From the IMG/VR virus record IMGVR_UViG_3300005614_001084, positions 64,001 through 128,000 of that record: DNA of 64,000 bases; one strand, 5' to 3'. The position numbers and the translations under genes were made by a program. Below are positions 7,300 to 47,820 of the stretch, piece by piece. This stretch comes from a virus. Lineage: Duplodnaviria; Caudoviricetes. Every line of letters begins with the position of its first letter. The stretch's first letter is position 1. The notes below the pieces were generated by a model, which saw only the letters and a list, made by a program, of their open reading frames with translations, did no database searches and had not been told where the DNA came from.

Positions 7300-7623
7300 A
7301 TGAGCTGGATCAGGCTCCGCGAAGTGAATCAGTGGAACGTGATCAGCTACTCGGAATCGACGGTTCTGACGCGAACCCTCAACGGCCACGGCCTCATCAA
7401 GCTCGAAGAGCGTTCGATGCCGGTACGATGGCCCGACGGCACGACTGAGTACATCGATCTCAAGAGCGTCAAGACCCAGGTCGACACGTACGACATGGGG
7501 TCGACCCACAAAACCGAGCAGACCCGCTTCGGTTTCTGGACCAAGGTCCACGGCCTGCTGCTCTGGGTCGACATCTGCGGAGTCGAGGTGCGCACCGATT
7601 ACCTCGGCAGGAACGAGCCGTGA
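7300..7623 (+). CDS. hypothetical protein
   Basis: GAGG RBS, protein-like sequence. Confidence 0.55.
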   Translation: MSWIRLREVNQWNVISYSESTVLTRTLNGHGLIKLEERSMPVRWPDGTTEYIDLKSVKTQVDTYDMGSTHKTEQTRFGFWTKVHGLLLWVDICGVEVRTDYLGRNEP

Positions 7624-8246
7624 ACGAGCGCTGCCCCAGCACGACAGTCACCGGCCTGCTCGAAGCTGCGGAGTCGAACTCGATGTTCGACTACTACAGC
7701 GATCGCTGGCGGCAAGACAGCGCATTCGGCCGCGTGGAGTGGGTCGGCACGATGCTAGGCCGCCTGGCGGACCGGAAGCTCGTCGACTGGTCCGGCGACA
7801 TGTCCGACGTTACGATCACCGAACTGGGCAAGAAGTATCTGGCCTGGTTGCGCGGCGGACGCCGTGGGCCCAACCCGTGTAGGAGTTCCGATGAAGCACC
7901 GTTGGTGGAGGTGGCGCGTACGGCGCCACAAGATCACAGTGATCGACAACGAGACGCAACGACTGACCGAGCCAAGATCACGGCTTCGGTGGCAGGCACT
8001 GCGCGTATCGACGGAGGAGTTCATCCTCCACGCCAAGCTCAACGTAGGCTACAACATCCGCCCGCTGATGTTCGTCGTTCGCAAGACCGACAACGCTCGA
8101 AGGCGGGCGCGACGCCGGCTCGTCAGCAGGTGATCAGTGCCAGCGCGCCGGCAGCCAGCCCACGGGGTAGCCGAACAGCGCGGAGAGCAGCCAGAAGCAC
8201 GCCACGACGATGATGACGGCTCGCGCAACGCGAGCCATGAGGAACC

Positions 8247-11128: not shown

Positions 11129-11563
11129 TCAGCTCTTGGTCGAGGTGGCGACGGCGAGGGCCTTGCTCGCGGTACCGGCGTCGTGTGCCCCCATCATCTT
11201 CCCGCTCGCGGGATCGAAGGGGTAGTCCTTGCGCCCGACCAGCGGCTGCGACACCACCTCGACCGAGGACTGCACGGCGCGGACTGCTGCGGCGCCCAGG
11301 GCTTCCGACGCCGCCTTGACGTCGTTCTGAAGCACGACACGCCACAGGAAGCGGATGTTGTTGGTCTGATCGACGTAGAACCACTTGCTGACGTCGGTGC
11401 TCCACGGCTGTCCCACCGAGGCCAGCAAGAACTCGCTCATGGTCTCGTTCCAGAAGCTGTCCTTGGCGACGCGCAGGAGAACGATGACACGCCCGGGTGC
11501 CGTCTCGGTCTTCGCGATCGAAATGCCGGCACGCTGAAGAAGCTTGTTGAGGGCGATGGCCAT
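11129..11563 (-). CDS. hypothetical protein
   Basis: Operon spacing, GGAG RBS. Confidence 0.6.
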   Translation of the reverse strand: MAIALNKLLQRAGISIAKTETAPGRVIVLLRVAKDSFWNETMSEFLLASVGQPWSTDVSKWFYVDQTNNIRFLWRVVLQNDVKAASEALGAAAVRAVQSSVEVVSQPLVGRKDYPFDPASGKMMGAHDAGTASKALAVATSTKS

Positions 11564-11565
11564 GA

Positions 11566-12078
11566 TCAGACTCCCATGTCGATGATGACGCCGAACGTCG
11601 CGTCGTTGAAGTAGATCGTCGGACCGCCGAGAACGAGAAGCTTGTCGGGGTACTTCTCGTTCTCGTGGTAGCTCACGTTCATGCCGAGGAACGTATCGGG
11701 CTGCGAATGCTCCTCGATCCCGAAGTAGTCGGCGAAGATGTCTCCGGCCGGCGCCAGGATGCCGCAGACGCGCAGACGTTCGTTGCTGATCGTCTTGGTG
11801 GCGAGCCCGAGGTTGAGGTAGGGGTGGGAGTCGGGCTTGAACTCCTGAGTCAGCAGGCGGATCTTGCCCATGAGGAACTCCAGATCGACGTCGATCTTCG
11901 TCTCGGTCTTCGGCAGCACCGGCGAATCGTCCTCGTCCTCCATCAGCCGCGAGACGATGAACTCCTCGGGCGTGACCTCGACCTTCTGGATGCCGCTGAG
12001 CTGCATCACGCGCTTGAACAGCGACACGACACGCTCCACGCCCTTGGGCAGCGGCTCGTTGTGGACCCGCAGCTTCAT
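11566..12078 (-). CDS. hypothetical protein
   Basis: Start MKLRVHNE overlaps the stop of the RHH gene. Confidence 0.6.
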   Translation of the reverse strand: MKLRVHNEPLPKGVERVVSLFKRVMQLSGIQKVEVTPEEFIVSRLMEDEDDSPVLPKTETKIDVDLEFLMGKIRLLTQEFKPDSHPYLNLGLATKTISNERLRVCGILAPAGDIFADYFGIEEHSQPDTFLGMNVSYHENEKYPDKLLVLGGPTIYFNDATFGVIIDMGV

Positions 12079-35329: not shown

Positions 35330-35763
35330 CGCAGGATCTCCTTGACCGCATGCTCACGCTCGCACGCCGAGTTCACACACCGATCCAACCACGCCGAGGC
35401 GTAGTCGTTGGGCCAGCCGTTCGCCTTGCTGCTCAGCAGCGCGTCGAGCTTGGTGATGCGCCCATCCCAGATCTCGCCGGCCAAGAGGCCAAGCAGGTAC
35501 AGCATCAACCGGACCTCGTCCTGGGGACCGAACCTCGTCGGTTCCTCGCGATGGTCAAACCACAGGCACAGATGCCCGCCACCAACCCAGGCCTCCAGCG
35601 GGCGTCGCAGGCCACCCGTCGTGCTGGACAGACCCCCCGGGGGTACAACGCGTTCCTGGCGCGACGTCGTGTCCGCAGCACGAGCTTGGGCCCGCTGTAT
35701 CTGCGCCTGTACGTGCTCGGGCTTCTGGCGTCGTCGGCTTAGCGTAGAGGGTCGTCGTGACAT
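35320..35763 (-). CDS. hypothetical protein (probably leaderless)
   Basis: The ATG lies 7 nt after a -10 box. Confidence 0.5.
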   Translation of the reverse strand: MSRRPSTLSRRRQKPEHVQAQIQRAQARAADTTSRQERVVPPGGLSSTTGGLRRPLEAWVGGGHLCLWFDHREEPTRFGPQDEVRLMLYLLGLLAGEIWDGRITKLDALLSSKANGWPNDYASAWLDRCVNSACEREHAVKEILRWL

Positions 35764-35770
35764 CAGTATG

Positions 35771-35799
35771 AGAATACATGCGAATACACAAGGCGTCAA
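35771..35799 (-). promoter_or_regulatory. sigma70-type promoter with TGTATTC operator repeats
   Basis: TTGACG-17 nt-TATTCT, containing TGTGTATTC and TGTATTC; same design as the promoter at 12270-12309. Confidence 0.65.
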
Positions 35800-35807
35800 C
35801 AGCGGGC

Positions 35808-35835
35808 AAAGAGATGGGGAGAAGCCCCAGTCTCT
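35808..35835 (-). terminator. terminator closing pseudoknot array E
   Basis: AGAGA(C)TGGGG-CTTCT-CCCCATCTCT-TT. Confidence 0.6.
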
Positions 35836-36188
35836 GAGATCGGTACGACGCACATTCCATCCCGCGATCGTCTCCAACCCTACAACTCTCGTTCGTCATC
35901 GCTTCCATGCTCGGCCTAGGCCCGGCGCGTTAGCTTGAGACCCACCTGCTTACCCACGGTGGTCCTGGGTTACTGCGCCAAGCTGATCCCTCCCATGCTG
36001 CGCGCAACAAAGCTCGCGGCGCATCCGCGCGAGACTTACATCTCAACAACACCACCAGCTTTTCCGCGGTGGTCCCGGATCGATGCAGGTCTCGTCCCCT
36101 GCCAGGAGGCCCGACCTTCTCACGTAGACTTCCGTCGTCGGCCCTTTCCGTTCATCACACAGCGCCGGCTTACCCGCGGCGTTCCGGG
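35836..36188 (-). ncRNA. pseudoknot-repeat/spacer array E (3 repeats: 36163-36188, 36051-36079, 35942-35970)
   Basis: Repeats share S1-G(G)-S2-G-S1'-NAAGCN-S2'; unique spacers of ~80-105 nt. Confidence 0.8.
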
Positions 36189-36481
36189 AGCATCTTCGGT
36201 CTCACACGATGCGGGCCGTGCGGACACATCGTGAGGTCGATGGCTGGCCTGACGTCACCGCGCGAATCCATCCGATCGATGATGTTGTTGATGTCGCGCA
36301 CCTCATGCCCGGTATCGTCGAAGTGCGCCGCATCTTCGTGCGACTTGCCGCAGTGCGCGCAGAGGTCGTGAGCGTAGACACCTTCCATCTCAGCACCAGC
36401 CACGAACTCGTGCTGATCCCCGTACACATCACGGGCCAGGTTCCCGCCGCACTCCTCGCAGATGCACCTCACCTCGTTCAC
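36170..36481 (-). CDS. small Cys-rich protein whose TAA stop lies inside a pseudoknot repeat
   Basis: CEEC and CAHC; ends CGC GGG TAA GC. Confidence 0.55.
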   Translation of the reverse strand: MNEVRCICEECGGNLARDVYGDQHEFVAGAEMEGVYAHDLCAHCGKSHEDAAHFDDTGHEVRDINNIIDRMDSRGDVRPAIDLTMCPHGPHRVRPKMLPERRG

Positions 36482-37116
36482 TTCGTGCTCCCCGGCTTCA
36501 CGCGTTCGAGCAAGAAGTCGAGGTCGGCGCAGTGATCGACTCCCCACATCTCTGCGGCCTCGGCGCGAAGCTTCGCGACGAAGGTGTCGGCCTCGGCGCG
36601 CAGGGCGTGCACCTTCTCGTACAGCTTCTCGGGATCACCCCACAGCTCGGCCTTCACCATCGCGGCGTTGACCCTGCGTCCCCGACCTCCCTTGCTTCTC
36701 GGCGGATCGATCTCCGCGCTGAGCCGCATCAGTCGGTACATCCCCTCGTTGATTTCGGTCGCGCCCTCGAACGCATCCCGAATCTCCTCCGCCAGCCACA
36801 TCGCCTGCTCTTCGCTCAGCGCCAGGCGCTCGACGAGCAGCGCAAGACCATCGGCATGCTTCTTCTCCCAGTCCAGCATCGTGGCGCGGCTCTTCTTCTC
36901 CTCCGCGATGCGGCATCTCTCCTCGTGCGCCGCGTAGTAGTAGTTCGCGCGCTCCACCGGATCACTACTCGCCGTGATCTCGATGCGAACGTCGTTGAAC
37001 ACCAAGACCTCGGTGTTGCCGGTGCGCTTCGCCTCTTCCACCACCGCTTTCGTCGCATCGGTGATCCACCCCAGGGTGTGGATGGTGCCGTCTTCCCTCC
37101 GATACAGTCGAAACAT
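36478..37116 (-). CDS. hypothetical protein
   Basis: Preceded by CTATAAGATCTTGGAGG. Confidence 0.65.
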   Translation of the reverse strand: MFRLYRREDGTIHTLGWITDATKAVVEEAKRTGNTEVLVFNDVRIEITASSDPVERANYYYAAHEERCRIAEEKKSRATMLDWEKKHADGLALLVERLALSEEQAMWLAEEIRDAFEGATEINEGMYRLMRLSAEIDPPRSKGGRGRRVNAAMVKAELWGDPEKLYEKVHALRAEADTFVAKLRAEAAEMWGVDHCADLDFLLERVKPGSTK

Positions 37117-37121
37117 CTCTA

Positions 37122-37167
37122 CCTCCAAGATCTTATAGGGCAAAAAGAACACGCCAAAGCGTGTTCT
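37122..37167 (-). terminator. terminator immediately followed by CTATAAG promoter and SD
   Basis: AGAACACGC-TTTG-GCGTGTTCT-TTTTGCCCTATAAGATCTTGGAGG. Confidence 0.75.
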
Positions 37168-37930
37168 AGATGCCAAGCGGATGCCCTCACCCTCCAGCGA
37201 TCACACGAAGCAGACGCGCCTTTCTACCCTCCATCTCTCGTCGATACCACCGGCTTGCCCACGGTGGTCCTGGGTCATCGGCGGTATCACCGATCGCACA
37301 TTCTCCCGACTTCAAGACCCCCTATCCCCACCACTCGCGACGCAGTCGAACGTGCCTTCGCACTTGCGTGTCTTCCTACCGCCAGCCACCAAGATCATCG
37401 TTACTGCGGTACCCACCTGCTTAGCCGCGGTGGTCCCGGAGCGACGCGCGAAAGTCCGAGCGTCCGTACCTTCCGCCTGGTTGCCGACCCCTCGTTCATC
37501 CCTGACCGAACCGCGCCAGCTTACCGGCGGCGCACCCGGATCAACACAGAGCGCGGACCTCCACGCCCACCCATCTTCTCACGCCATCCACTTCCACTCG
37601 CCGCCCGTCCAAGTGTGCGAACGGTCGATCTCGCCGCTTACCCGCGCGTATCCGGGATGATCTGAAAAACTTTCCTTCCCACAGCCAGGTCCCCGTTCCG
37701 TCTTCCGTGACAACCTGTACCCGTACTTTCAGCACAACACCTTCTACGTACTACGTCCTGATCTCAGAACATACTCGATCCCACCGTCTTATCGGAGGTG
37801 GGCCCCGAGATCGCAATGACTGGCGGGCGTGCTCAGACCACTGCCGTCTTCCTTCGCATCCACCGCCTGTTCATTCTCTCGAATCACCAAACAGAAGGTC
37901 CAACGCCTGCTTACCCGCGGTCGTCCGGGT
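37168..37930 (-). ncRNA. pseudoknot-repeat/spacer array D (6 repeats: 37902-37930, 37780-37808, 37632-37656, 37513-37540, 37413-37440, 37246-37274)
   Basis: About 760 nt with no convincing gene; six co-varying repeats; spacers 72-138 nt. Confidence 0.85.
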
Positions 37931-38522
37931 TGATCTCGACGTCGTACATACGTCCGGCGTCGCTCTTCGGCTGCGCGTCGGGCGCCATGCTGAAGCTGAG
38001 GAGGTTGTCGCAGTCCTCGTCCTCACCGTTGTCCCGCTGCACGTCGAGCGTGACGTGACCTTCGAGCGTACGACCCGCAGTGATGACGATGTCGCCGACC
38101 TCGAAGATCAGAAGGTCCTGGTCCGCCCTACGGTCGGTGATGAGTAGCATGAGCTTGGGCGTCTGCACCGCGATGGGGTTGGGCTGTGTTGGCGCCACCA
38201 ACCGATCTGCGAGCCACATCGCACGCTCCTCTCCCGTCCACGCCATGTACTGAGGAGGCTTCAGCCCACACATCCGCAGCGCCGCGGTGACCTCCGCGCG
38301 TCGAGACGCGTGCGGGCTCATCGCCCCCTCCAGCCAGTACTCGCGCAGTCGGTGCTGGATGCTCTTGCGCGCGTTGTCGAGCGTCTCGCTCGCCAGCTTC
38401 ACCTCGTTGACGGCGAAGCTGAGTTCGTTGATGTCGGCGGCCCGTTTCTCGCGAAGCTCTTCCTGAGCCTTCTCGATCGTGCCCTCTACTTCGTCGACGG
38501 TTCGATCTTGCCATTCACCCAT
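37911..38522 (-). CDS. hypothetical protein whose TAA stop lies inside a pseudoknot repeat
   Basis: CTATAAG promoter and GGAGG; ends CGC GGG TAA GC. Confidence 0.6.
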   Translation of the reverse strand: MGEWQDRTVDEVEGTIEKAQEELREKRAADINELSFAVNEVKLASETLDNARKSIQHRLREYWLEGAMSPHASRRAEVTAALRMCGLKPPQYMAWTGEERAMWLADRLVAPTQPNPIAVQTPKLMLLITDRRADQDLLIFEVGDIVITAGRTLEGHVTLDVQRDNGEDEDCDNLLSFSMAPDAQPKSDAGRMYDVEINPDDRG

Positions 38523-38527
38523 GTGTT

Positions 38528-38569
38528 CCTCCAAGATCTTATAGGCAAAAAGGAAGGCTGTCCTTCCTT
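38528..38569 (-). terminator. terminator plus CTATAAG promoter and SD
   Basis: AAGGAAGG-ACAG-CCTTCCTT-TTTGCCTATAAGATCTTGGAGG. Confidence 0.75.
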
Positions 38570-38964
38570 CGTCCGTACTGGACTTCGTACAACCGACGAA
38601 ATACTCGAATCCTTCATTCGTCCAGCTATTTCATCAGCCAACACTTCCTTAGATCACCACCTGCTTGCCAGCGGTGGTCCCCGGATAGATCGAGCCTGTT
38701 CCTCAGATCATCAGCTACAGCAGTACCGCCAAGCGCTGCTTCGTCTCTCCATTCATTCCTGTGATCGTTCCTGCAATCCCTAGGAACCAGCCGTCCTCCC
38801 CAACTTCACCCCTCCGCTAGAGCGCCACCTGCTTACCTGCGGTGGCCCCAGGAGCTTCAGATCGGGACACCCGACATAGCTACTTGATTCCTGTCCGACT
38901 AACTAACGGGGCATCAGTCGTTGCAACTGTCCGCCGTCCTCAGCTTGCCGGCGAGGTATCCGGG
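38570..38964 (-). ncRNA. pseudoknot-repeat/spacer array C (3 repeats: 38938-38964, 38824-38853, 38656-38685)
   Basis: Co-varying stems such as CCTG/CAGG and CCTC/GAGG. Confidence 0.8.
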
Positions 38965-39446
38965 TACGATCGCGTCTCCACGCCTTCGCGCGGATGCACG
39001 CCGACGATATCGAGCAGCATGGAATCGGGGAACCTCTGCTGCACGAACTTGACGGTGTCGCGGCGCGCCAGCTCGACGTCTGCCGGCAGCATGTAGTCGG
39101 ACACCTCTTCACCGCTGTGCCACGTACAGGCGCCCTCGAAGAAGTAGCTCAGTGCTGCCATCGGCGATTTCTCGATCAGCTTGATCGCCGCAACTTCCAG
39201 CTCTGCAAGAGAGGAGAGCGGGAAGTCAGGACAGGTGTCGTCCGTTCGAACGAGCTGACGTGCCGCAGTCCGAACCTCTTCGTACTGCACCAAGGTGCTG
39301 AGCACCGAACCCACTGCACACCGTGCGCAGAAGGGCAACTGCGACGGGAACTGCGCCGTGCCGAACCACGCCCCGGGCCGCAACTGCTCGATGGGTTCGT
39401 TCTCCAGCGCGTCGATGATCTGAGCCTTTGTCACCACGATGAGCAT
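38940..39446 (-). CDS. hypothetical protein ending within a pseudoknot repeat
   Basis: AGGAGG RBS; CARCAVG. Confidence 0.55.
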   Translation of the reverse strand: MLIVVTKAQIIDALENEPIEQLRPGAWFGTAQFPSQLPFCARCAVGSVLSTLVQYEEVRTAARQLVRTDDTCPDFPLSSLAELEVAAIKLIEKSPMAALSYFFEGACTWHSGEEVSDYMLPADVELARRDTVKFVQQRFPDSMLLDIVGVHPREGVETRSYPDTSPAS

Positions 39447-39454
39447 GTCGCCTC

Positions 39455-40033
39455 CTAACATCCGTCGTCGAGATCAGAGTCACCCACGCGTCGCTCCGCC
39501 AGATGACGAAGCTCCGCCGCCTCCTCCGCGCTGAGCGGTTCGAGCTGCGCCTTCACGCGCAACGTCTCGTAGCGCGCACCCTCATCTGCGGGGAGGGCCA
39601 CCCAGGTCAATACGCCTTTCTTGATGTCATAGATCTGATCGAAGCCGAAGCGTCGCATCATGACATCAACGGGATTGCCCGCGATCTCGTAGTCGCCCGC
39701 CGTAGCCTTGAGCACGTTGTCGATGGCGGGATGGATCTCCGACACACCACCGACGCCGTACCTGATGCTGTACAGCATGCCGCGCGTACGACTGAGCGCC
39801 TCGAAGAGCTTCGCCGACAGCTCGACCGCGGCCTTGAGACGATTGCCGATCGTGGTGGTGACGACCACGGGCTTGCCATGCTTCGCCTCGTACTGCTCCA
39901 CAATGCCCTCGATCGTACCGTCGATATGATCTCTGGCGAAGTCGGGCAGCTTGTCGTAGTCGCGCCCAAAGGGCCCGCCCAGCGGGCCACCGAGCAACGC
40001 CATGCGCAGCAGTTCCACCTCACGCTTCGTCAT
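39455..40033 (-). CDS. hypothetical protein
   Basis: Coupled ORF starting MTKREVELL. Confidence 0.55.
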   Translation of the reverse strand: MTKREVELLRMALLGGPLGGPFGRDYDKLPDFARDHIDGTIEGIVEQYEAKHGKPVVVTTTIGNRLKAAVELSAKLFEALSRTRGMLYSIRYGVGGVSEIHPAIDNVLKATAGDYEIAGNPVDVMMRRFGFDQIYDIKKGVLTWVALPADEGARYETLRVKAQLEPLSAEEAAELRHLAERRVGDSDLDDGC

Positions 40034-40347
40034 AGTCCCCTTCCTCGCTCCTGGATCTCGGCCGACTGACGGCTCATGATCTTCTCCGCCTCTTTGATGC
40101 GCCGGGCGGTACTCGCGTTGAGGCTCAGCGTTCTGTACAACACGGCGAACGTGACTGAGTTGCACGCCAAGCCGATCGGAATACCAACACGCGGCGCCCC
40201 GGTACTCCACCACAAGGCGAAGGCTGTCAGGGAAAGCAAGCCGGAGATCGCACACAGCGCAGCGCACACGATCATGCCGGCGGTGATTCCGCGCTCAGCC
40301 TTCTCTTCAACTTCGAGTGGTTTCTCGCTCTCTCTGTACGGCATCAC
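40030..40347 (-). CDS. small 2-TM membrane protein
   Basis: Two hydrophobic segments. Confidence 0.55.
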   Translation of the reverse strand: MMPYRESEKPLEVEEKAERGITAGMIVCAALCAISGLLSLTAFALWWSTGAPRVGIPIGLACNSVTFAVLYRTLSLNASTARRIKEAEKIMSRQSAEIQERGRGL

Positions 40348-40850
40348 GCCTCCTCGATCTTGCCGCGCACTGGGCGCGGCGTGAGCATCACGTGCGGCTT
40401 CGGGTTGTGAATGAAGGTTCGATTGAAGTCCTCGTTCTCCACTTCAGCGATCGCCGCGGCTTCGGCTGCGATGGTGTGGAGCCAGCGCTCTGCGAACAGC
40501 ACCTGCTCCTTCGTCAGGACCAGTAGGCAGGGCCAGCATACGACGTTGTAGAGACCACTAGGCCTCGACTCGATGTCGCGCAGCGTGTCGATGAAGCCCT
40601 CGACCTGCGTCGCGAAGATGTAGAGCGTGGAGTCGAAGAACGGGGTCGAGAAGCGGTGCGCACCGATGCGCATCACGCCTCCGCCATCCAGCGCCACACT
40701 GCTGATCTCCTGCTTTGCCCATGGCTCCAGGTCGGGGTCTTCGCGCCATCGAGGCTCCTTGATGGCCAGGGCCTCGTCGCTGATCCACATCGGAGAGACG
40801 CAGCGCCGGCCTTCGCGAGCGTTCTCCGGCTTCACCAGCCACCACTTCAT
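40344..40850 (-). CDS. hypothetical protein
   Basis: Coupled ORF starting MKWWLVK. Confidence 0.55.
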   Translation of the reverse strand: MKWWLVKPENAREGRRCVSPMWISDEALAIKEPRWREDPDLEPWAKQEISSVALDGGGVMRIGAHRFSTPFFDSTLYIFATQVEGFIDTLRDIESRPSGLYNVVCWPCLLVLTKEQVLFAERWLHTIAAEAAAIAEVENEDFNRTFIHNPKPHVMLTPRPVRGKIEEA

Positions 40851-41473
40851 CACGGCCTCGCCAGTCCGAGGACGTCGACCATCACCTTGATGTAGTCCTT
40901 CATCTTCTGATCTCCCCATGCGTGGATGAGCCCCTTGGCCGGACCGAACTCCTTCGTCACGTCCTCGTTCTCGAACGCCTTGCTCAGGCGCTCCGGGATG
41001 ACGGCGAGACCGGACTCCGCCATCACCTCGATGCTCCACACGTTCTTGCGGTGGCCCACCACAAACATGATGCCGAGGCCCGCCTTCTCTTTCGGCGCGA
41101 TCGAGTACCACGGAATCATAGAGTACAGCCGATCGTTCCTCCAGTACTGGTTCGGGATCTCCTTCAGCCCGTAGTGCGGCATGCGCGCAGCAGAGAACGC
41201 TCCCTGCACGGAGTAGAACTCGTCCCACGCCCGATTCCTCATCAGGCAGGTCTCGTGCACCCACTTCTCCTGCGTCTGCACGTAGCGCTGATCGCTGAAG
41301 GCAGGACCATTCAGCTCCCAGCCGCGACCGCACAACGCGCAGGTCTTGCCTCGCACGTCACTGATGTGGTGGGTGGAGATGTAGTAGCCCTCCTGCTTCT
41401 CGTGCAGAAGCTGGCCGCGCTCGTCGAAGCCGACGCTCTTGTCTTCGGTGATGGGATTTACGATCTGAGTCAT
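40850..41473 (-). CDS. hypothetical protein
   Basis: Preceded by CTATAAGATCTAGAGGAG. Confidence 0.65.
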   Translation of the reverse strand: MTQIVNPITEDKSVGFDERGQLLHEKQEGYYISTHHISDVRGKTCALCGRGWELNGPAFSDQRYVQTQEKWVHETCLMRNRAWDEFYSVQGAFSAARMPHYGLKEIPNQYWRNDRLYSMIPWYSIAPKEKAGLGIMFVVGHRKNVWSIEVMAESGLAVIPERLSKAFENEDVTKEFGPAKGLIHAWGDQKMKDYIKVMVDVLGLARP

Positions 41474-41480
41474 GGCATCT

Positions 41481-41525
41481 CTCCTCTAGATCTTATAGGC
41501 AAAAGGAGAGGCGCGATGCCTCTCC
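41481..41525 (-). terminator. terminator plus CTATAAG promoter and SD
   Basis: GGAGAGGC-ATCGC-GCCTCTCC-TTTTGCCTATAAG. Confidence 0.75.
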
Positions 41526-41606
41526 CCGGACCGACTTCTCATCCGTCCCACATACCCTCAAACGTTACATCTGGATTCCGGCCTGCTTATCGGCGGCCTT
41601 CCCCGA
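41526..41606 (-). ncRNA. single pseudoknot repeat plus spacer (array B; repeat 41580-41606)
   Basis: TCGG/CCGA and GGCC/GGCC stems with TAAGCA loop. Confidence 0.7.
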
Positions 41607-42677
41607 ACCTTCAGGATGGAAGATCTGAGCCTGGCGAGCCTTTTCGTAGGCACCGGCTTCCACCAGCAGACCAGACCTGGATGCCACCTTGGTCTCGCCC
41701 AGGGGCGTACGTATCTCCATCGCGATCTCATGCGCCGATACGTCAGTACGCGCAAGCGGTTTCTCCTTCGCTCTTTGATCCGTGGCGAAGGCTCTCACCT
41801 CAGCGAGCGGATGCGTGGTGATGAACAGCCAGTGAAGAGCGATCATCGCCGAGGCGCTTCCCTCACCTTGGGTCTTGATCCAGTTCACAAAGATGGCGTC
41901 CCACACCTCATCGATCCGAAGATGTGTTGCGAACGCTTTTCGACGCTGTGCCGGATTCATCTGAGACAGCTCGGTGCTACTGAAGCCAGTAGCGAGCAGC
42001 GCACTCATTGCCGCACTCGATCCTGCCGGAGTGGAGACGAGCCGGGCCCACTCCTCGTGAAGAGGATCTCGGCCCTCCTCCGGCTTGGGCGGCGGTATCT
42101 TGGGATCAGGGAAGTCCGGGAACTTGTCGAACGCCGCGAGCTTGAGCCCGAGCTTGTTCATCAGCTCGATGTCGCCGGTCTCGGAGAGAAGCGTCAGGTC
42201 TTCGGCGGTAAGCGACACGAAGAGCTTGCTCAGCCACAACGCGCGAGGCGAGATCTCCCCGAACATCTCAGCGATGCAGTAGTTCACGAATCGGGTGTCC
42301 ACGCCTCCAACCAAGGTGCCGCCACGAAGATGACGTGACGTCGCCTCCGCCCACACCCTGACGCCGAGATCGTAGAGCATCTTTCGCGTCCGTGACTCGA
42401 ACTGTGCCTCCATCCGCCTGAAGCCCTCCTCCCGCATACGGGCAGACAGCGCCTCGACCCCGAGATGCAAGATCTTATCCCGTGGGATGTTGTTGCGATC
42501 GAGAACTTCTCGGACGCGGTCCGTAACTCGCTCCAGCTCCAGAACCTTACGGCGCTCGCCGTAAAGCTCCGTCTTCAACTTCTCGATCTCCCGCTCGTAG
42601 TCGGCGACCGTCTTCTTGATCCCGAACTCCTTGTTCGTCGTACGTTCCTTGATCTTCTGCACTCGCTTCTTATTCAT
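41565..42677 (-). CDS. hypothetical protein (370 aa, N-terminal coiled coil)
   Basis: AAGGAG RBS; the 3' end reads through a repeat. Confidence 0.6.
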   Translation of the reverse strand: MNKKRVQKIKERTTNKEFGIKKTVADYEREIEKLKTELYGERRKVLELERVTDRVREVLDRNNIPRDKILHLGVEALSARMREEGFRRMEAQFESRTRKMLYDLGVRVWAEATSRHLRGGTLVGGVDTRFVNYCIAEMFGEISPRALWLSKLFVSLTAEDLTLLSETGDIELMNKLGLKLAAFDKFPDFPDPKIPPPKPEEGRDPLHEEWARLVSTPAGSSAAMSALLATGFSSTELSQMNPAQRRKAFATHLRIDEVWDAIFVNWIKTQGEGSASAMIALHWLFITTHPLAEVRAFATDQRAKEKPLARTDVSAHEIAMEIRTPLGETKVASRSGLLVEAGAYEKARQAQIFHPEGSGKAADKQAGIQM

Positions 42678-43201
42678 GATCGTCTCCTTCTTCGATACGG
42701 TGGTCTGCCGCGGTTCTTCTTCACCACCGCGTACAGGCGGGCCTGGATGCGACGAAGCTCTGCGATGGTCTCGGGAGTGAGATGGCGGCGGAACACGGCC
42801 TGGCGCAGACGACGCGCCACCTTGTCCCTTCTCTCGCGTGCCCAGCCATGATCGTCGAACATGTTGAGCGTGGACTCCACGCCGAGCCCGTTCTGCCGAG
42901 CCAGCCCGATGCTGAGCAGAGACGCGATCTCCTCCTCTGCATCAACAAGTCTTTCTGAGATCTCGGCGCGATGCTGGCCAAGCCTGTGCGGATCACCGAG
43001 ACCGAAGTACGGCAGCTCCTTGCGCGATGGTGGTGCGACCAGCAGATGCGCCAGCTCGTGCGCCAAGTGCTCAGCGGTATCTGCGGTATGGGCGTCCTCT
43101 TCCTCGTCGTAGTACGGCCACTCACCTTCGATCCACCGCAGCCCGTGCTTGCTCGCCAGCTTGATGATGTTGCGCCCTGCGACCGTGTTCAACGCGACCA
43201 T
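42674..43201 (-). CDS. HExxH protein, EpmC/YfcM-like
   Basis: AHELAHLLVAPPSRKELPYFGLG resembles the EpmC motif; CTATAAG promoter and GGAGG. Confidence 0.5.
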   Translation of the reverse strand: MVALNTVAGRNIIKLASKHGLRWIEGEWPYYDEEEDAHTADTAEHLAHELAHLLVAPPSRKELPYFGLGDPHRLGQHRAEISERLVDAEEEIASLLSIGLARQNGLGVESTLNMFDDHGWARERRDKVARRLRQAVFRRHLTPETIAELRRIQARLYAVVKKNRGRPPYRRRRRS

Positions 43202-43206
43202 GCCTT

Positions 43207-43253
43207 CCTCCGCATGCTTATAGACAAAAAGATCAACCCGAAAGTTGATCTTT
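43207..43253 (-). terminator. terminator plus CTATAAG promoter and SD
   Basis: AAAGATCAAC-TTTCGG-GTTGATCTTT-TTGTCTATAAG...GGAGG. Confidence 0.7.
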
Positions 43254-43627
43254 AGTACCCAGCTCTCCGCAGAGCTATGATCCGTTCCTACCACCTATCG
43301 TAGCTACCGAAGTTCTATACCCCAATCGTTCAGTCATATGGCTGTTCAGTCATATGGCCGGCCGCCCTGTGATACTGGAGGTGGTGCCGCCTGCTTACCC
43401 GCGGCGGCCCCGGAAGTTTCGATCTGAAAGAGCGAGCCCGACGTCTCTTGTTCGCCAACGCTAGCCCCCAGAGAATGGACGACACCGGCTTACCCACGGT
43501 ATCCCTGGGATCGATCTTGTTGGACGTAGTACGTTCCCGCGTCCTGTGCCACCAGCGATACTTCGACCGCCTTCAGGCGTCCCATCCATCCTTGAAGCGC
43601 CACCTGCTTCACCGCGGTGGCCCCGGC
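43254..43627 (-). ncRNA. pseudoknot-repeat/spacer array A directly downstream of the RAMP gene (repeats 43599-43627, 43481-43510, 43386-43414)
   Basis: The first repeat starts 41 nt after the RAMP stop; G-U pairs in the stems work only on the minus strand. Confidence 0.85.
43328..43358. repeat. 16-bp-period tandem duplication GTTCAGTCATATGGC
   Basis: GTTCAGTCATATGGC-T-GTTCAGTCATATGGC. Confidence 0.85.
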
Positions 43628-43668
43628 GCAGCCTGAGTTCTCTCGGCTACTCGCGAAAGATCGCGTTC

Positions 43669-44775
43669 CTACTCCGCGGAGACCTCGGCAGCTTCCGCCG
43701 CTTCGAGGTCGTCCATGCCCTTCGAGTTGACGACACCCGCGATCTTGACGCCGCTGAGGCGCGCCACGGTCTTGTCGAGGTAGCCGGCGTACTGCTGTCG
43801 AAGCTCCGCCGGCACACCGGCGAGCAGGTGATCGAGGGGGCCCTCCTTCACCTTGCCGAGCTGCTCGAAGCTGATGGGCAGCAGCGTACCGTAGCGGGTG
43901 CCTCGGGCGGGACTGAGGCCGCGACGCGGCTGCAAGCACGCCACCCACAGCATGCGTTCGAGCTGGTCGGGGGCGAGGAAGCCCTTGACCGGCGCGCTGA
44001 ACCGGATCTCGAACTCCACGCCCGGCAGCAGCGCCTCGTACTTCTTCGGCGCCGCGGGACCGTTCGCGCTCTGCACCGGCAGCACGACCTCTTCCATCGG
44101 GGCGTCGGCCGGGATGCGGATGGGCTGGAACGCGACGTAGTCGGCACGGGCCGCCGGCAGCCCGGCCGGATGCATCACGTTGGTGCGGAACCAGCCGCGC
44201 TGCACGTCCGGCGTGATGATGATCTCCTTGGTGTTGAGATCACGCTCGAAGATACCGTTGCCGGTGATGTCCTCGTCCTTCTCGTGGACGCCGCGGGCCT
44301 TGAGCATCATCTCGCTCGGGATCTGCGAGCCGAGCAGCGGCGTCAGCGTGCGCACGCGCAGCAGGTAGCTGCGGTACTCGTCGATGATGTTGCCGCGGCC
44401 CGCCTTCTCGTCACCCTGCTTCTCCTTCTTGTCGAAGCCGGACTTCAGATCCTCCAGCTCGACAGTGCGAAGCAGCTCGGGCAGCAGATCGCCGACGTGC
44501 GCGTACTCCGGCGGGGACTTCCACCCCAGCTTCTTCATCTCCCAGACCTTCACCATCTTGGAGTTGGCGCCGACCGGGCGCTGGTTCTCCGCGATGATGT
44601 CGCGCTTCTTCAGGCCCTTCAGCGCCTGCGTGAGCAGGTTGTTGTTCGGTCCGAAGTTGCAGTCGAGCGCGGTCGCCGCCGTCTCGACGATGTTGGCGAT
44701 CGTGGCGCTCCCCATCTTCTGCACGATGTAGGTAGCGATGAGCTGGGCTTCGGTCAGGTTCTCGATGATCTTCAT
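43669..44775 (-). CDS. stand-alone Cas7-like RAMP protein with N-terminal winged-helix domain
   Basis: RAMP motifs in canonical order: LRVRTLTPLLGS, IIITPDVQRGWFR, YEALLPGVEFEIRF, G-rich loop GLSPARGTRYG. The first ~80 aa are wHTH-like. Confidence 0.75.
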   Translation of the reverse strand: MKIIENLTEAQLIATYIVQKMGSATIANIVETAATALDCNFGPNNNLLTQALKGLKKRDIIAENQRPVGANSKMVKVWEMKKLGWKSPPEYAHVGDLLPELLRTVELEDLKSGFDKKEKQGDEKAGRGNIIDEYRSYLLRVRTLTPLLGSQIPSEMMLKARGVHEKDEDITGNGIFERDLNTKEIIITPDVQRGWFRTNVMHPAGLPAARADYVAFQPIRIPADAPMEEVVLPVQSANGPAAPKKYEALLPGVEFEIRFSAPVKGFLAPDQLERMLWVACLQPRRGLSPARGTRYGTLLPISFEQLGKVKEGPLDHLLAGVPAELRQQYAGYLDKTVARLSGVKIAGVVNSKGMDDLEAAEAAEVSAE

Positions 44776-44839
44776 GTTCGTTTTCTCCCGTTGATGGGCA
44801 TGGCCCTTCAACTACTGATAGCTGATCTTAGAACGAGGT

Positions 44840-45352
44840 TCAGTGGTACAGGACGTTGGTATCCTTTCCGAGAAGAGGAACGATCAACTCCTCGGCATGG
44901 TCGTAGATGGACATCAGGTACGGCTGCATCTCTTCGAGAGAGGAATCCGTCACGATCTCTCGCATCGCTGCGATGACGCCTTCCGTCGTGGGCTTCTCGC
45001 TCCAGACCTCCAGACGATCGCAGCAGAGCGCGATGCTCCACGCGAGCACCGCCGCGATGTTCATGGTGGAGAGCGTGACGTCGCCGTTGAAGACGACATG
45101 GATGTGCCGCTGCGAACACATCCCGATGTTGATGGGCTGCGGGAGGGCCGGCTGCACGTCGAAGTGGACCTGCGTCGGGCGCTGGAATCTCCACGCCGTG
45201 GCGATCCCAAGCATGTCCGTCAGCATGCTGGGCAGCATCAGGTCGTACTCCACGCGCTCGGCGAGAACCGCGATCCTCTCCTGAATGCTGGGCTCCTTCG
45301 GCTTCGCAGACTTCGTCCGGGCCGCAGGACGCTTCTTCGTCTTGGGCTTCAC
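44840..45352 (-). CDS. hypothetical protein upstream of the RAMP gene
   Basis: GGAG RBS, CTATCAG box at 45376-45382. Confidence 0.6.
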   Translation of the reverse strand: MKPKTKKRPAARTKSAKPKEPSIQERIAVLAERVEYDLMLPSMLTDMLGIATAWRFQRPTQVHFDVQPALPQPINIGMCSQRHIHVVFNGDVTLSTMNIAAVLAWSIALCCDRLEVWSEKPTTEGVIAAMREIVTDSSLEEMQPYLMSIYDHAEELIVPLLGKDTNVLYH

Positions 45353-45759
45353 GGCTTGATCTCCGTCTTCTTGATCTGATAGCCACGGTAGGGCTTACCG
45401 TTGCTTCCGACCATACTAACGGTCTCGATCGAGTTCGCGAGCTGAAGCGACTTCAGACAGCGCGCCACGGTCTCGAAGCTGTGCGGCACACCGTCCTCGA
45501 TCTCCGAGATGCTCATCGGTCGCTTCGCGATCTTGATGAAGGCGAAGACGTTGTTCTTCGCCGTGGCGATGTCCCTCCGACTACGCTTGCGCTTCGGCGC
45601 GGCCTTGGCGATGAGCCTGCCCACCACTGCGGGGTCGAGTGTGGTCGCGGTCTTGCCGTTGAGCAGATCCTCCAAGACCTGGTTGTACTTCGCGGCCTCC
45701 GCCTCGTGGAACGCAGCCTTGGCCGCAGCATCCTTCACTCTGTCGATCAGCTTGGTCAT
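45349..45759 (-). CDS. coiled-coil plus C-terminal winged-helix DNA-binding protein
   Basis: VFAFIKIAKRPMSISEIEDGVPHSFETVARCLKSL. Confidence 0.6.
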   Translation of the reverse strand: MTKLIDRVKDAAAKAAFHEAEAAKYNQVLEDLLNGKTATTLDPAVVGRLIAKAAPKRKRSRRDIATAKNNVFAFIKIAKRPMSISEIEDGVPHSFETVARCLKSLQLANSIETVSMVGSNGKPYRGYQIKKTEIKP

Positions 45760-45782
45760 ATGTTCTCCTGGACGCATCCTCG

Positions 45783-45826
45783 TCCAAGATCTTATAGGGC
45801 AAAGAGAAAGGGGCCTTTCGGCCCCT
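45783..45826 (-). terminator. terminator plus CTATAAG promoter
   Basis: GGGGCC-GAAA-GGCCCC-TTTCTCTTTGCCCTATAAGATCTTGG. Confidence 0.75.
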
Positions 45827-45829
45827 CGC

Positions 45830-46420
45830 TCATGCGTACTCGGAATCGACATCCGGGTTCCAATAGGTGGCCACCGGGCACACTCCACTTCCGATCCAGC
45901 GCGGTCTTCCGAAGGTTGGCTCGTTGCGCCCATTCAGCAGGCCCAAGCGCCGCGCGCGCTTGATGCCTCGCCTCCAGAACCGCAGGAACATGTACCGCTC
46001 GCCCCACTCCCTGAGAGCACTACCCGGATACCCGACCTCCGTGACCAGCTGGTAGTCGATCACGCACTTCAGGAAGTAGTCAGCCCAGGATTCTCCGCGC
46101 ACTAGCCATTTCGCCAGCTCCAGCTCGAAGGGCATGAGCAGGTAGGCTTCACAGATCACTCGGCTGGGCTCGCCAAGAATGCAGTGCACGATCTCGTGCA
46201 GCAGTATCTCCGGCATCGGATCGTAGGCGTAGACCAGCCTGGCTTTGGTGCTGAAGCCGACGTCACCCTGTGGGCCCCAAGTGAAGTCTTCGGGTAACTG
46301 CGGCTGGTTCTGTTCGACGTCCGGGTCTGAGTGGTGCTCGATGCAGAGCTTGATGCCGTAGCTCTTGGCCAACTCCCCCAACTTCTGAAGGATCTTGCCG
46401 TAGTACTCGTCGTTCACCAC
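45830..46420 (-). CDS. HExxH (zincin-like) protein
   Basis: ILLHEIVHCILG...E. Confidence 0.55.
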   Translation of the reverse strand: MVNDEYYGKILQKLGELAKSYGIKLCIEHHSDPDVEQNQPQLPEDFTWGPQGDVGFSTKARLVYAYDPMPEILLHEIVHCILGEPSRVICEAYLLMPFELELAKWLVRGESWADYFLKCVIDYQLVTEVGYPGSALREWGERYMFLRFWRRGIKRARRLGLLNGRNEPTFGRPRWIGSGVCPVATYWNPDVDSEYA

Positions 46421-47559
46421 TTCTCGGTCTCGTGAATGAGTTTGATCTTGCCGAACCGAGGGACCCCGGCCGGCGTGCGCTGTGCGAAGTACTTCACCGT
46501 TGCCTTCTTGCCGATCAGCTTGTCGGCGTTCTCGAGGATGGCGACGCGTTCCGCCTTCGTCCCCACGACGTCGGCCTTGAACTTCCGCGTGGGATCGATG
46601 TCGAGCTGGAGCCAGGCCACCTTGGCACCACCGCTGGCGTTGCCTTCACCCTCCAAGATCTCCAACACCACGAACTCGGAGTCCTTGAACTCCTTGCGCT
46701 TGAGCAGCTTGTTAGTCCGCTTCTCCTCGTACTCGCCGTCGATCCTGACCATCTGGCCCTCGTAGCCCATGGCGAGCCACTCCTCGTACCAGGTGTCGAG
46801 CGCCTTCTCGGCGAAGATCGGCATGGTGGGGACGATGACGAGCGGCTTGCCCACCTCGTTCACCACGTCATAGATCCGCGAGAACCTAGCGTGGAAGAGG
46901 TCGACGCCGTTCATCGGCGAATCGTACATGTGGTACTGCACGATCTCTGCGGTCTTGGCCAGATGCTCGGGCGAGGGCTTCAGCGTCTTCACGAGAGAAG
47001 TGATCTCGTTGAAGTTGTCCTTCAGCTCGTGGTTGTACAGCTCGCCGTCGAAGCGCAAACCAGGGATGGCTGCGAAGTACGGCGCCAGCGCCTTCTCGAT
47101 GTGTGGGCAGCTCACGATGCGGTCACCCTTGCGCGACCACAGTCCCTTGGCGTCGGCGATGCAGCGGATGCCATCGAGCTTCGGCTGCGCGTACACCGGG
47201 GGCAGATGCGGGAACTGGGGCGAGAAGTTGATCTTCGCCTTGTAGTCGGCGTAGTCCTTGGCCAGCATGGGCTGGAACCGGGTGGAGGACTGCGCAGCAT
47301 CGACGGTCGTGGAGTAGCCGTCCTTCTTCTTGCGATCGTAGCCGGACTCCACCTCCAGCAGAGCTTGCTGACCCGGGGTCGTTTCGTTGGCTCGGCCGAC
47401 GTTCTTCGCCTTCGCGTTCGTCCACTCCGAAACTACGATCGCCCCATCCTTCTGCCCGCTGTGGGTGCGGTAGCGCCCGTTGGTGGTCTCCAGCTCCAGC
47501 CACCACACCTGAATCGCGCCGGTGCTGGTCCTCTTGTAGAGCTTCTCGCAGTGCATCAC
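46414..47559 (-). CDS. lig: ATP-dependent DNA ligase
   Basis: PMLA, QPKLDGIRC (motif I), FDGELY, YEGQMVR, LLKRK and PRF motifs. Confidence 0.92.
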   Translation of the reverse strand: MMHCEKLYKRTSTGAIQVWWLELETTNGRYRTHSGQKDGAIVVSEWTNAKAKNVGRANETTPGQQALLEVESGYDRKKKDGYSTTVDAAQSSTRFQPMLAKDYADYKAKINFSPQFPHLPPVYAQPKLDGIRCIADAKGLWSRKGDRIVSCPHIEKALAPYFAAIPGLRFDGELYNHELKDNFNEITSLVKTLKPSPEHLAKTAEIVQYHMYDSPMNGVDLFHARFSRIYDVVNEVGKPLVIVPTMPIFAEKALDTWYEEWLAMGYEGQMVRIDGEYEEKRTNKLLKRKEFKDSEFVVLEILEGEGNASGGAKVAWLQLDIDPTRKFKADVVGTKAERVAILENADKLIGKKATVKYFAQRTPAGVPRFGKIKLIHETEKW

Positions 47560-47766: not shown

Positions 47767-47820
47767 CCTCCAAGATCTTATAGGGCAAAAGAAAAGAGGC
47801 GGTACCGAAGTACCGCCCCT
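47767..47820 (-). terminator. terminator plus CTATAAG promoter and SD
   Basis: GGCGGTAC-TTCG-GTACCGCC-TCTTTTCTTTTGCCCTATAAGATCTTGGAGG. Confidence 0.75.

Follow-up and report, generated by a model that had tools for sequence, protein, structure and literature searches.

The window analysed here is a stretch of 64,000 nucleotides (nt) from a 172,310-bp virus record with 63% GC (IMG/VR record IMGVR_UViG_3300005614_001084), and all coordinates refer to it unless another locus is named. It carries a 29-nt element in exactly 16 copies, all on the minus strand between 35941 and 43627, as found by a repeat search and a whole-genome structure-aware scan. A covariance model built from the copies returned the same 16, and the 17th-best match in the genome had an E-value of 0.69. 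On the minus strand each copy has the layout of an H-type pseudoknot, in which stem S1 (4 nt), G or GG, stem S2 (4–6 nt), G, S1', YAAGCN, and S2' follow one another. Each of the 16 pseudoknots precedes a G-rich, C-poor tract of 66–161 nt with a 4-nt periodicity of G, written (GNNN)n. Transcription units, all on the minus strand and each beginning at a CTATMAG motif, line up along the region. Five of the units end in one to six modules, composed of a pseudoknot and its tract, and then in a terminator. The gene directly upstream of the first array encodes a protein predicted to carry a winged helix–turn–helix (wHTH) and a Cas7-like RAMP domain. VIPR systems, which are mostly phage-borne, are likewise built on a lone RAMP protein (Vipr), usually with an accessory protein (Vap) and with guide RNAs (vrRNAs) encoded in flanking intergenic DNA (10.64898/2026.04.26.720920, 10.64898/2026.04.26.720927). 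The gene, the arrays, and the pseudoknot copies are as follows, with protein and open reading frame (ORF) lengths in amino acids (aa).

43669–44775, minus strand: gene of the 368-aa wHTH-RAMP protein, a candidate Vipr-like effector, directly upstream of array 1 and with its own CTATCAG motif at 44815–44821
43225–43668, minus strand: array 1, a 41-nt leading GNNN tract, three pseudoknot–tract units, and a terminator hairpin; period-4 power of the last tract 9.9
43599–43627, minus strand: pseudoknot copy 1, GCCG-GG-GCCACC-G-CGGT-GAAGCA-GGTGGC
43481–43509, minus strand: pseudoknot copy 2, S1 CCCA/TGGG, S2 GATACC/GGTGTC with a U.G pair
43386–43414, minus strand: pseudoknot copy 3, S1 TCCG/CGGG, S2 GCCGCC/GGCGGC
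41500–41606, minus strand: array 2, one pseudoknot, a 78-nt GNNN tract (period-4 power 5.7), and a terminator
41578–41606, minus strand: pseudoknot of array 2, S1 TCGG/CCGA, S2 GGCC/GGCC, within the last codons of a 370-aa ORF
38546–38964, minus strand: array 3, three pseudoknot–tract units and a terminator
38936–38964, minus strand: pseudoknot copy 5, S1 CCGG/CCGG, S2 CCTC/GAGG, overlapping the TGA stop of a 173-aa ORF
38824–38852, minus strand: pseudoknot copy 6, S1 CCTG/CAGG
38656–38684, minus strand: pseudoknot copy 7, S1 CCGG/CTGG with a G.U pair
37140–37930, minus strand: array 4, six pseudoknot–tract units and a terminator
37902–37930, minus strand: pseudoknot copy 8, S2 degenerate, stop of a 203-aa ORF formed by the TAA in its TAAGC loop
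37780–37808, minus strand: pseudoknot copy 9, U junction and AAGA loop, compensatory U-A
37629–37657, minus strand: pseudoknot copy 10, weakest S2
37512–37540, minus strand: pseudoknot copy 11, S2 TGCGCC/GGCGCG
37412–37440, minus strand: pseudoknot copy 12, from the covariance-model match and the 21-copy parse
37246–37274, minus strand: pseudoknot copy 13, from the structure-aware scan, the covariance model, and the 21-copy parse
35800–36189, minus strand: array 5, three pseudoknot–tract units and a terminator hairpin
36161–36189, minus strand: pseudoknot copy 14, its loop TAA being the stop of a 104-aa zinc-ribbon-like ORF
36051–36079, minus strand: pseudoknot copy 15, loop AAAGC
35941–35969, minus strand: pseudoknot copy 16, from the structure-aware scan, the covariance model, and the 21-copy parse

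Pseudoknot covariation and the tetranucleotide tracts

The copies were aligned without gaps by MAFFT, and this alignment (A1) was scored with two interleaved stems. The stem cells of A1 are paired in 88.1% of cases, compared with 70.0 ± 2.1% in shuffles, and none of 500 shuffles reached the observed value. Two-sided changes occur at eight of the ten pairs, namely three of four in S1 and five of six in S2, and both helices thus contribute. When the 3' partners are slid by one to three columns, the covariation score of A1 falls from 0.495 to 0.06–0.09 and its pairing to 33–53%. We also parsed 21 copies in a structure-aware manner, the 16 of the window and five from a related locus (L026). S1 is paired at 83 of 84 cells with 12 distinct stem sequences, and S2 at 111 of 126 cells with 15. 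As this parse selects the loop-1 length that maximises S1 pairing, it somewhat favours structure, and the fixed-column count of A1 is the unbiased figure. The original prediction held that the repeats keep an H-type pseudoknot by covariation rather than a sequence, and the covariation of both stems in A1 and in the 21-copy parse bears this out.

G.U cells of the pseudoknot number nine and A.C cells two, which supports an RNA of the minus strand, the strand common to all genes of the region. The orientation proposed from wobble pairs is thereby upheld, and the wobbles it had pointed to in the copies at 43481, 43599, 43386, and 38656 are present. Alignment columns 26 (the junction G) and 35 (the C of AAGC) form a pair, which is G-C in 15 copies; in the copy at 37780 it is U-A. 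That copy had been singled out as odd for its T and its AAGA; it is odd, and its oddity is itself compensatory. RNAalifold, which cannot draw pseudoknots, returned S2 lengthened by this G26-C35 pair. The geometry is ordinary for the H type, in which a loop of 1–2 nt spans the deep groove of a 6-bp stem and a loop of 4–6 nt spans a 4-bp stem. Compact H-type pseudoknots of this kind are seen in luteoviral frameshift signals.

The copies are 62–90% identical to each other and are irregularly spaced by 95–169 nt or more. Twelve of the 16 lie in non-coding RNA. Three (38936–38964, 37902–37930, and 36161–36189) overlap the stop codon of the last gene of their unit, and the stop then lies inside the pseudoknot and not upstream of it. 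GATC occurs no more than 14 nt upstream of S1 in 10 of the 16 copies, against 1.9 expected, and is found there also where the upstream DNA is coding. A known Rfam family had been left to be excluded, and cmscan of the whole window at the gathering score matched none; at E up to 10, the region 35800–43800 gave four chance-level matches, none of them on a pseudoknot. The 7.8-kb array region had no blastn match among 50,697 phage records. A pattern scan of IMG/VR for the commonest core gave 25 single matches, nearly all plain CCACC...GGTGG hairpins without S1. One sequence on an IMG/VR contig of 71% GC (L010:6883–6903, CCCA-AGA-CCACC-G-TGGG-TAAGCA-GGTGG) fits the motif and was set aside as a chance match in a single copy. 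The 14 kb around it hold no second pseudoknot copy and no RAMP homologue, and although probably due to chance it could be a solo guide.

A period-4 signal of G is present in all 16 tracts, with a summed spectral power of 65.7 compared with about 16 expected. Periods of 3, 5, 6, and 7 give powers of 10–21, that of period 5 being 10.1. Across the whole genome, strong period-4 windows occur only inside the five arrays. Phasing with a simple four-state model resolves the tracts, which measure 16–35 GNNN units, into in-register runs of as many as 34 units, in which the three positions besides G vary broadly. In the array 3 tract at 38853–38935, for example, G occupies 15 of the 20 phase-0 positions and none of the phase-2 positions. 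In the last tract of array 1 (43328–43357, minus strand), the 14-nt stretch CCATATGACTGAAC occurs twice at a step of 16 nt, which equals four GNNN units; judged from the sequence, this duplication suggests that tracts may grow in multiples of the 4-nt unit.

The winged helix–RAMP protein, its relatives, and neighbouring genes

The 368-aa protein has no Pfam match. An AlphaFold model made with 11 aligned homologues has a predicted local distance difference test score of 74. Its closest solved folds in a Foldseek search of the PDB are Cmr4 (6s6b_I, E 3.4e-7), Csm3, the type VII Cas7, and Cas7-11, at E from 3e-7 to 1e-5. VIA-align places residues 1–104 on the PadR-like winged helix of Pex (Z 11.8) and residues 131–312 on Cmr4 and Csm3 (Z 10–11). 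The model thus joins a PadR/Pex-like winged helix at the N terminus to a Cas7-like RAMP domain. By analogy, the fused winged helix could replace the Vap proteins of winged-helix type. The motif PxRGxSPARGxRxG is invariant among the RAMP homologues. When the 11-sequence profile was compared with the Vipr of SUSP1 by hhalign, only this segment aligned, non-significantly (probability 1%), to the G-loop residues, which in SUSP1 hold the G bases of the guide (10.64898/2026.04.26.720927). Searched by sequence against the PDB, the protein profile had no match.

The RAMP family comprises 162 clusters at E ≤ 1e-3 among 1.84 billion representatives. Most members have 340–440 aa, and the wHTH fusion is therefore the normal form of the family. 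Relatives were found only in Logan and JGI metagenome assemblies; protein searches of IMG/VR and of GTDB genomes returned none.

Period-4 G tracts lie in non-coding DNA beside the homologues of nine other loci (L026, L029, L030, L032, L033, L035, L037, L040, and L045), whose proteins are 35–87% identical to the 368-aa protein. Coding DNA of the homologue loci has a period of 3 and not of 4, and the nine loci otherwise differ in gene content. The pseudoknot accompanies only the closest proteins, with one copy in L045 (87% identity) and five in L026 (56% identity). The L045 copy reads ACCG-GG-ACCACC-G-CGGT-TAAGCT-GGTGGT and has GATC before it, and the L026 copies have GAA as loop 1. The copies of these two loci add the compensatory stems GCTACC/GGTAGC, ACCC/GGGT, and ACCG/CGGT. 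Proteins of about 40% identity are instead accompanied by hairpins with covarying stems and a conserved loop of 12–13 nt, GGCCGNGAUGGU(G). Such hairpins number nine in L032 and three or four in L029, and L037 has a variant. They are placed after the tracts:

L032:1287–4115: hairpin handles
L029:11343–12265: hairpin handles
L037:7392–7415 and 7591–7632: hairpin handles

The last hairpin of L037 has a T-run and may double as a terminator. Since the pseudoknot goes with the proteins of 87% and 56% identity and the hairpin with those of about 40%, the type of handle follows the protein clade. In the sequences compared, it tracks that clade as CRISPR repeats track Cas proteins.

In L026, three pseudoknots lie 5–10 nt past a promoter-like CTATMAGT, with a tract and then a terminator after each of them. 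No tract of this locus runs straight into a pseudoknot; a terminator and promoter cassette intervenes each time. Small ORFs overlapping the L026 pseudoknots were considered as coding and rejected, as their frames differ between copies. The terminator hairpins that close the L026 units (L026:9903–9930, 11320–11350, 11625–11655, and 11865–11895) have a near-identical loop, GAC(U/C)GCCA(A/C), and therefore the RNAs may carry a conserved 3' element besides the 5' pseudoknot.

CTATMAG has 16 matches in the window, compared with 4.7 expected. Promoter-like motifs stand before the units that carry arrays and before the RAMP gene:

37132–37138, minus strand: promoter-like CTATAAG before a unit carrying an array
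38538–38544, minus strand: promoter-like CTATAAG before a unit carrying an array
41492–41498, minus strand: promoter-like CTATAAG before a unit carrying an array
43217–43223, minus strand: promoter-like CTATAAG before a unit carrying an array
44815–44821, minus strand: promoter-like CTATCAG before the RAMP gene

CTATAAG occurs at 47783, 45797, 43223, 41498, 38544, and 37138, in the form CTATAAGATCT at all of these except 43223, and a Shine–Dalgarno (SD) sequence and an ATG come next. A G+C hairpin with a T-run precedes each CTATAAG motif, but not the CTATCAG at 44821; from its sequence, we read it as the putative terminator of the preceding unit. The resulting cassette (minus strand; 37132–37160, 38538–38566, 41492–41520, 43217–43245, 45791–45820, and 47777–47805) consists of the G+C hairpin, TTTT(T)G(C/T)C, CTATAAG (mostly CTATAAGATCT), an SD sequence, and an ATG, and looks like a terminator directly followed by a phage-specific promoter. 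No promoter motif was found inside any of the five arrays. Past the terminator of the last array, 35760–35800 (minus strand) holds a sigma-70-like promoter, TTGACG, 17 nt, and TATTCT, which is unlike CTATMAG.

Searches of 20 neighbouring proteins against Pfam and PHROGs gave nothing informative except a ligase, a helicase, and a weak zinc ribbon. No Cas family and no toxin family, ToxN/AbiQ included, was matched among them. No separate vap gene was recognised, the proteins upstream of the RAMP gene (44808–45386 and 45349–45933) having no Pfam match or weak ones only. A gene for an ATP-dependent DNA ligase lies a few genes from the RAMP gene in the window (46414–47559), in L026 (2512–3651), and in SUSP1 (L044:29511–30611). 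Between arrays 1 and 2, 42674–43201 (minus strand) encodes a 175-aa protein without a Pfam match, whose HExxH motif (HELAH) is reminiscent of ImmA/IrrE-type metalloproteases.

Comparison with VIPR, CRISPR, and type III toxin–antitoxin systems

Three bioRxiv reports served as sources on VIPR (10.64898/2026.04.26.720920, 10.64898/2026.04.26.720927, and 10.64898/2026.10.15.759431). VIPR, described in 2026 and proposed as the viral ancestor of the RAMP effectors of CRISPR, is directed against competing phages and satellites (10.64898/2026.04.26.720920, 10.64898/2026.04.26.720927). A vrRNA is composed of 9–16 pentanucleotide repeats (GGY/NN; variants NNNGG, YNNNG, and NNNNG) and a conserved 3' tail. 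In the clade of Escherichia phage SUSP1 (type II), this tail is a pseudoknot, which was seen by cryogenic electron microscopy and which the solved complex keeps as a cap. Ribozymes separate the guides in arrays of types I and V, in the form of interspersed hammerheads, and all published types are pentanucleotide (10.64898/2026.04.26.720920, 10.64898/2026.04.26.720927). Periodic intergenic arrays have also been surveyed independently; their periods were 60–79, 18, and 5 nt, the remainder 10, 8, and 7, and none was 4.

We inspected SUSP1 (KT454805) directly. By gene order its Vipr is ALH47069.1, a protein of 195 aa and a neighbour of the DNA ligase gene. Our own parse of the tail gives GTAG-TTA-GTCTCA-G-CTAC-ATTAAAA-TGAGAC and two variants with other stems. 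These tails have an S1 of 4 bp, a loop 1 of 1–3 nt, an S2 of 6 bp, a junction of G or UAG, S1', an A-rich loop 3, and S2'. As a positive control, the SUSP1 arrays gave a period-5 power of 77 over 15 windows and nothing at period 4.

The window shares with VIPR and SUSP1 a phage-borne lone RAMP-fold protein with no other cas genes found among the searched neighbours; the record is viral, the modelled fold is that of a RAMP, and none of the 20 proteins belongs to a Cas family. Also shared are the several putative guides per locus in non-coding DNA flanking the RAMP gene, and a short-period repeat with a fixed G, variable positions, and a conserved structured cap. Short-period tracts with a fixed G lie in non-coding DNA beside the RAMP gene here and in the nine other loci. 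By our parse, the SUSP1 cap has the same layout, being of the H type, with stems of 4 bp (S1) and 6 bp (S2) and a short junction; its stem sequences also vary between copies while pairing is kept, and a DNA ligase gene likewise lies a few genes away. The unit, however, is here the tetranucleotide GNNN, whereas that of VIPR has 5 nt (GGY/NN or its pentanucleotide variants). Different from SUSP1, in which a 195-aa Vipr is accompanied by a separate vap1, the window encodes a 368-aa winged helix–RAMP fusion. Loop 3 is UAAGCN instead of A-rich, the pseudoknot is most probably 5' of the tract instead of 3', and tracts reach 35 units compared with 9–16. The 16 candidate guides are distributed over five transcription units and interleaved with protein genes, which also differs from SUSP1.

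The closest solved folds (Cmr4, Csm3, and Cas7-11) are shared with class 1 CRISPR-Cas (types I, III, IV, and VII), as is a structured, conserved handle beside a variable guide, the handle type co-varying with the protein clade. If the pseudoknot is 5', its polarity resembles that of the 5' handle of CRISPR RNA. In contrast to a CRISPR array, the repeats are not near-identical (62–90%) and their spacing of 95–169 nt is irregular. The intervening 'spacers' are periodic low-complexity tracts of inconstant length and not captured DNA, and the locus is in a virus. The earlier statement that the element differs from CRISPR therefore holds for the repeat, which is unlike the hairpin repeats of CRISPR, and fails for the system, which is still related to CRISPR.

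ToxI units fold as pseudoknots. With ToxI, CptI, and TenpI, the element has in common that short pseudoknot-forming RNA units are repeated, and those units bind a protein partner. They are, however, near-identical repeats of 34–45 nt that stand head-to-tail beside an endoribonuclease toxin, whereas here the units are dispersed and variable in sequence with tracts of 66–161 nt between them, no toxin family was matched, and Rfam gave no match. ToxI had been named as the known precedent for such arrays. As the copies are not head-to-tail and the 20 neighbouring proteins searched have no Pfam or PHROG match to a toxin such as ToxN, ToxI is not the nearest precedent; the nearest is the pseudoknot that caps the guide RNAs of VIPR.

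Role and position of the pseudoknot

Each repeat is probably the structured cap or handle of a guide-type RNA that belongs to a VIPR-like, RAMP-based phage system. The context explains the repeats in this way, since a RAMP gene lies upstream of array 1 and a (GNNN)n tract follows every pseudoknot. Among the roles that the original prediction had listed, that of a protein-loading handle is accordingly the one favoured by context, a Cas7-like RAMP gene being adjacent and each pseudoknot heading a tract. The system is most likely of the VIPR kind, known since 2026, and it differs from the known members in its 4-nt units, its wHTH fusion, and a probable 5' cap. From the fold, the context, and the solved SUSP1 precedent, we infer that the wHTH-RAMP protein binds RNA; processing of the array RNA and targeting of DNA are likewise proposed.

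The proposed mechanism is as follows. The five promoter-driven units would be transcribed on the minus strand, each transcript running past the last gene into one to six modules, and a module would consist of the 29-nt H-type pseudoknot and a (GNNN)n tract of 16–35 units. On the model of the solved SUSP1 complex, the wHTH-RAMP protein would form a polymer on the tract with a protomer at every repeat unit, and each of these would hold the periodic G and present the variable bases for gapped pairing with the DNA of a competing mobile element. One end of the filament would be capped by the pseudoknot, which may define the start or the stop of assembly and shield the end of the RNA. Release of pseudoknot-headed RNAs from the arrays could take place at the GAUC that stands a few bases before the pseudoknot, a candidate site of processing.

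The pseudoknot quite probably sits at the 5' end of the guide rather than at the 3' end as in SUSP1. All 16 pseudoknots precede a tract, whereas only 11 of the 16 follow another array module. Of the five that do not, four abut coding sequence without a period-4 signal, and the one at 43599–43627 has only the 41-nt leading tract before it. The five terminal tracts are closed by a terminator, not by a pseudoknot. A 5' cap is favoured because every pseudoknot has a tract after it, four of them abut coding DNA, five tracts are ended by a terminator, and L026 has the layout described above. The opposite arrangement, in which the tract comes first and the pseudoknot is the 3' tail of the guide, is unlikely, though the most serious of the alternatives. 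The pseudoknots at gene ends would then merely cap mRNAs, and the terminal tracts would use the terminator hairpin as their 3' end. It draws on the SUSP1 cap, which shares the layout and is 3', on the hairpin handles after the tracts of L032 and L037, and on L045, where the stop codon of the RAMP gene is followed by 85 nt of GNNN tract and then by GATC and the pseudoknot, the 41-nt tract of the window being its equivalent. It would, however, leave four pseudoknots of the window without a tract and five tracts without a pseudoknot; in L026, every tract meets a terminator and promoter cassette before any pseudoknot, and the upstream GATC is present even beside coding DNA. The leading tracts and the hairpins after tracts nevertheless lend a 3' cap some probability.

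The remaining explanations take the pseudoknot out of the role of a handle. The pseudoknots might be punctuation for processing only, separating the guides as sites for an RNase of host or phage or as small self-cleaving elements, which is in keeping with the ribozymes between the guides of type I and type V VIPR arrays and with the enrichment of GAUC just upstream of the pseudoknot; and since the arrays have no internal promoters, some processing is needed. We regard this as improbable as the sole role. The 29-nt element of 4 + 6 bp matches no Rfam ribozyme even at E up to 10, and self-cleavage by an element of this size without a ribozyme match appears unlikely from its sequence. Furthermore, the L026 pseudoknots stand directly after promoters, where cutting is unneeded, and the SUSP1 pseudoknot, alike in layout, is kept as a cap in the solved complex. 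Somewhat less probable still are elements unrelated to the RAMP protein, which would act in the 3' untranslated region by stabilising RNA or blocking exonucleases, or would act as a sponge for a host RNA-binding factor, in a G-rich and C-poor RNA. The tracts are indeed purine-rich with many SD-like, GGA, and GGAGG-like motifs, a weak rsmX-like Rfam match exists (E 3.7), and several pseudoknots begin at the stop codons of genes. Such elements would leave unexplained the strict 4-nt register of up to 34 units, the constant company of tract and RAMP homologue across nine loci of differing gene content, and the handle type that follows the protein clade. That the array encodes a ToxI-like type III antitoxin, or that the pseudoknots serve recoding by frameshift or readthrough, is hardly credible. 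Although ToxI units are pseudoknots and a stop codon is overlapped in three cases, the copies stand 95–169 nt or more apart instead of in tandem, and no Pfam or PHROG match, ToxN/AbiQ included, was found among the 20 neighbouring proteins. Moreover, 12 of the 16 copies are non-coding, and the overlapped stops lie inside the pseudoknot, not upstream of it.

Several results weigh against the guide-RNA interpretation or its details. The period-5 power of 10.1 lies below the roughly 16 expected; with a period of 4 and published types that are all pentanucleotide, the feature that defines VIPR, as written, is therefore absent. Occupancy of the fixed position by G is only about 67%, and this value comes from model-fitted phasing. 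The GNNN register showed no phase-locking to the pseudoknot at either of its edges (mean resultant length 0.1–0.4), which does not discriminate between a 5' and a 3' cap. A tract precedes the first pseudoknot over 85 nt in L045 and 41 nt in the window, and both the hairpin handles of the distant relatives and the SUSP1 cap come after the tract. Similarity to the SUSP1 Vipr ALH47069.1 is non-significant (hhalign E 0.056); the system is tied to VIPR by its fold, architecture, and context. Finally, a search for targets in the genome itself and 14 related loci, under ten pairing rules (which took all four bases, NNN, or two N's at a target period of 2, 3, or 4), revealed no target, observed scores being equal to shuffled ones; this null carries little weight, since it covers the genome and the related loci and not the host with its mobile elements.

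Whether the locus represents a previously undescribed, tetranucleotide-code type of VIPR, in which a wHTH-RAMP protein polymerises on (GNNN)n guides with a 5' pseudoknot, we consider evenly balanced. Each protomer would then hold one G and expose three bases, compared with GGY held and two bases exposed. As a part of this reading, to which we give the same even chance, handles would have been swapped in evolution, the pseudoknot serving one clade and the hairpin with the conserved loop another.

The defining trait of VIPR is a pentanucleotide, non-contiguous guide code, and a natural relative with a 4-nt code would show that the length of the code is not fixed by the RAMP fold. The recognition geometry, if the tetranucleotide reading is true, would be 3+1, between those of published VIPR (2+3) and class 1 CRISPR (5+1). 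The wHTH fusion would provide a second, independent geometry for how the thumb and the spacing of the G-loop set the pairing rule, and the cap would be able to switch to the opposite end of the guide. The 22 natural pseudoknot variants (16 in the window, five in L026, and one in L045), with their compensatory changes, form a mutational map of what the cap requires. A relative with a 4-nt code would also add programmable DNA-binding scaffolds of different information density.

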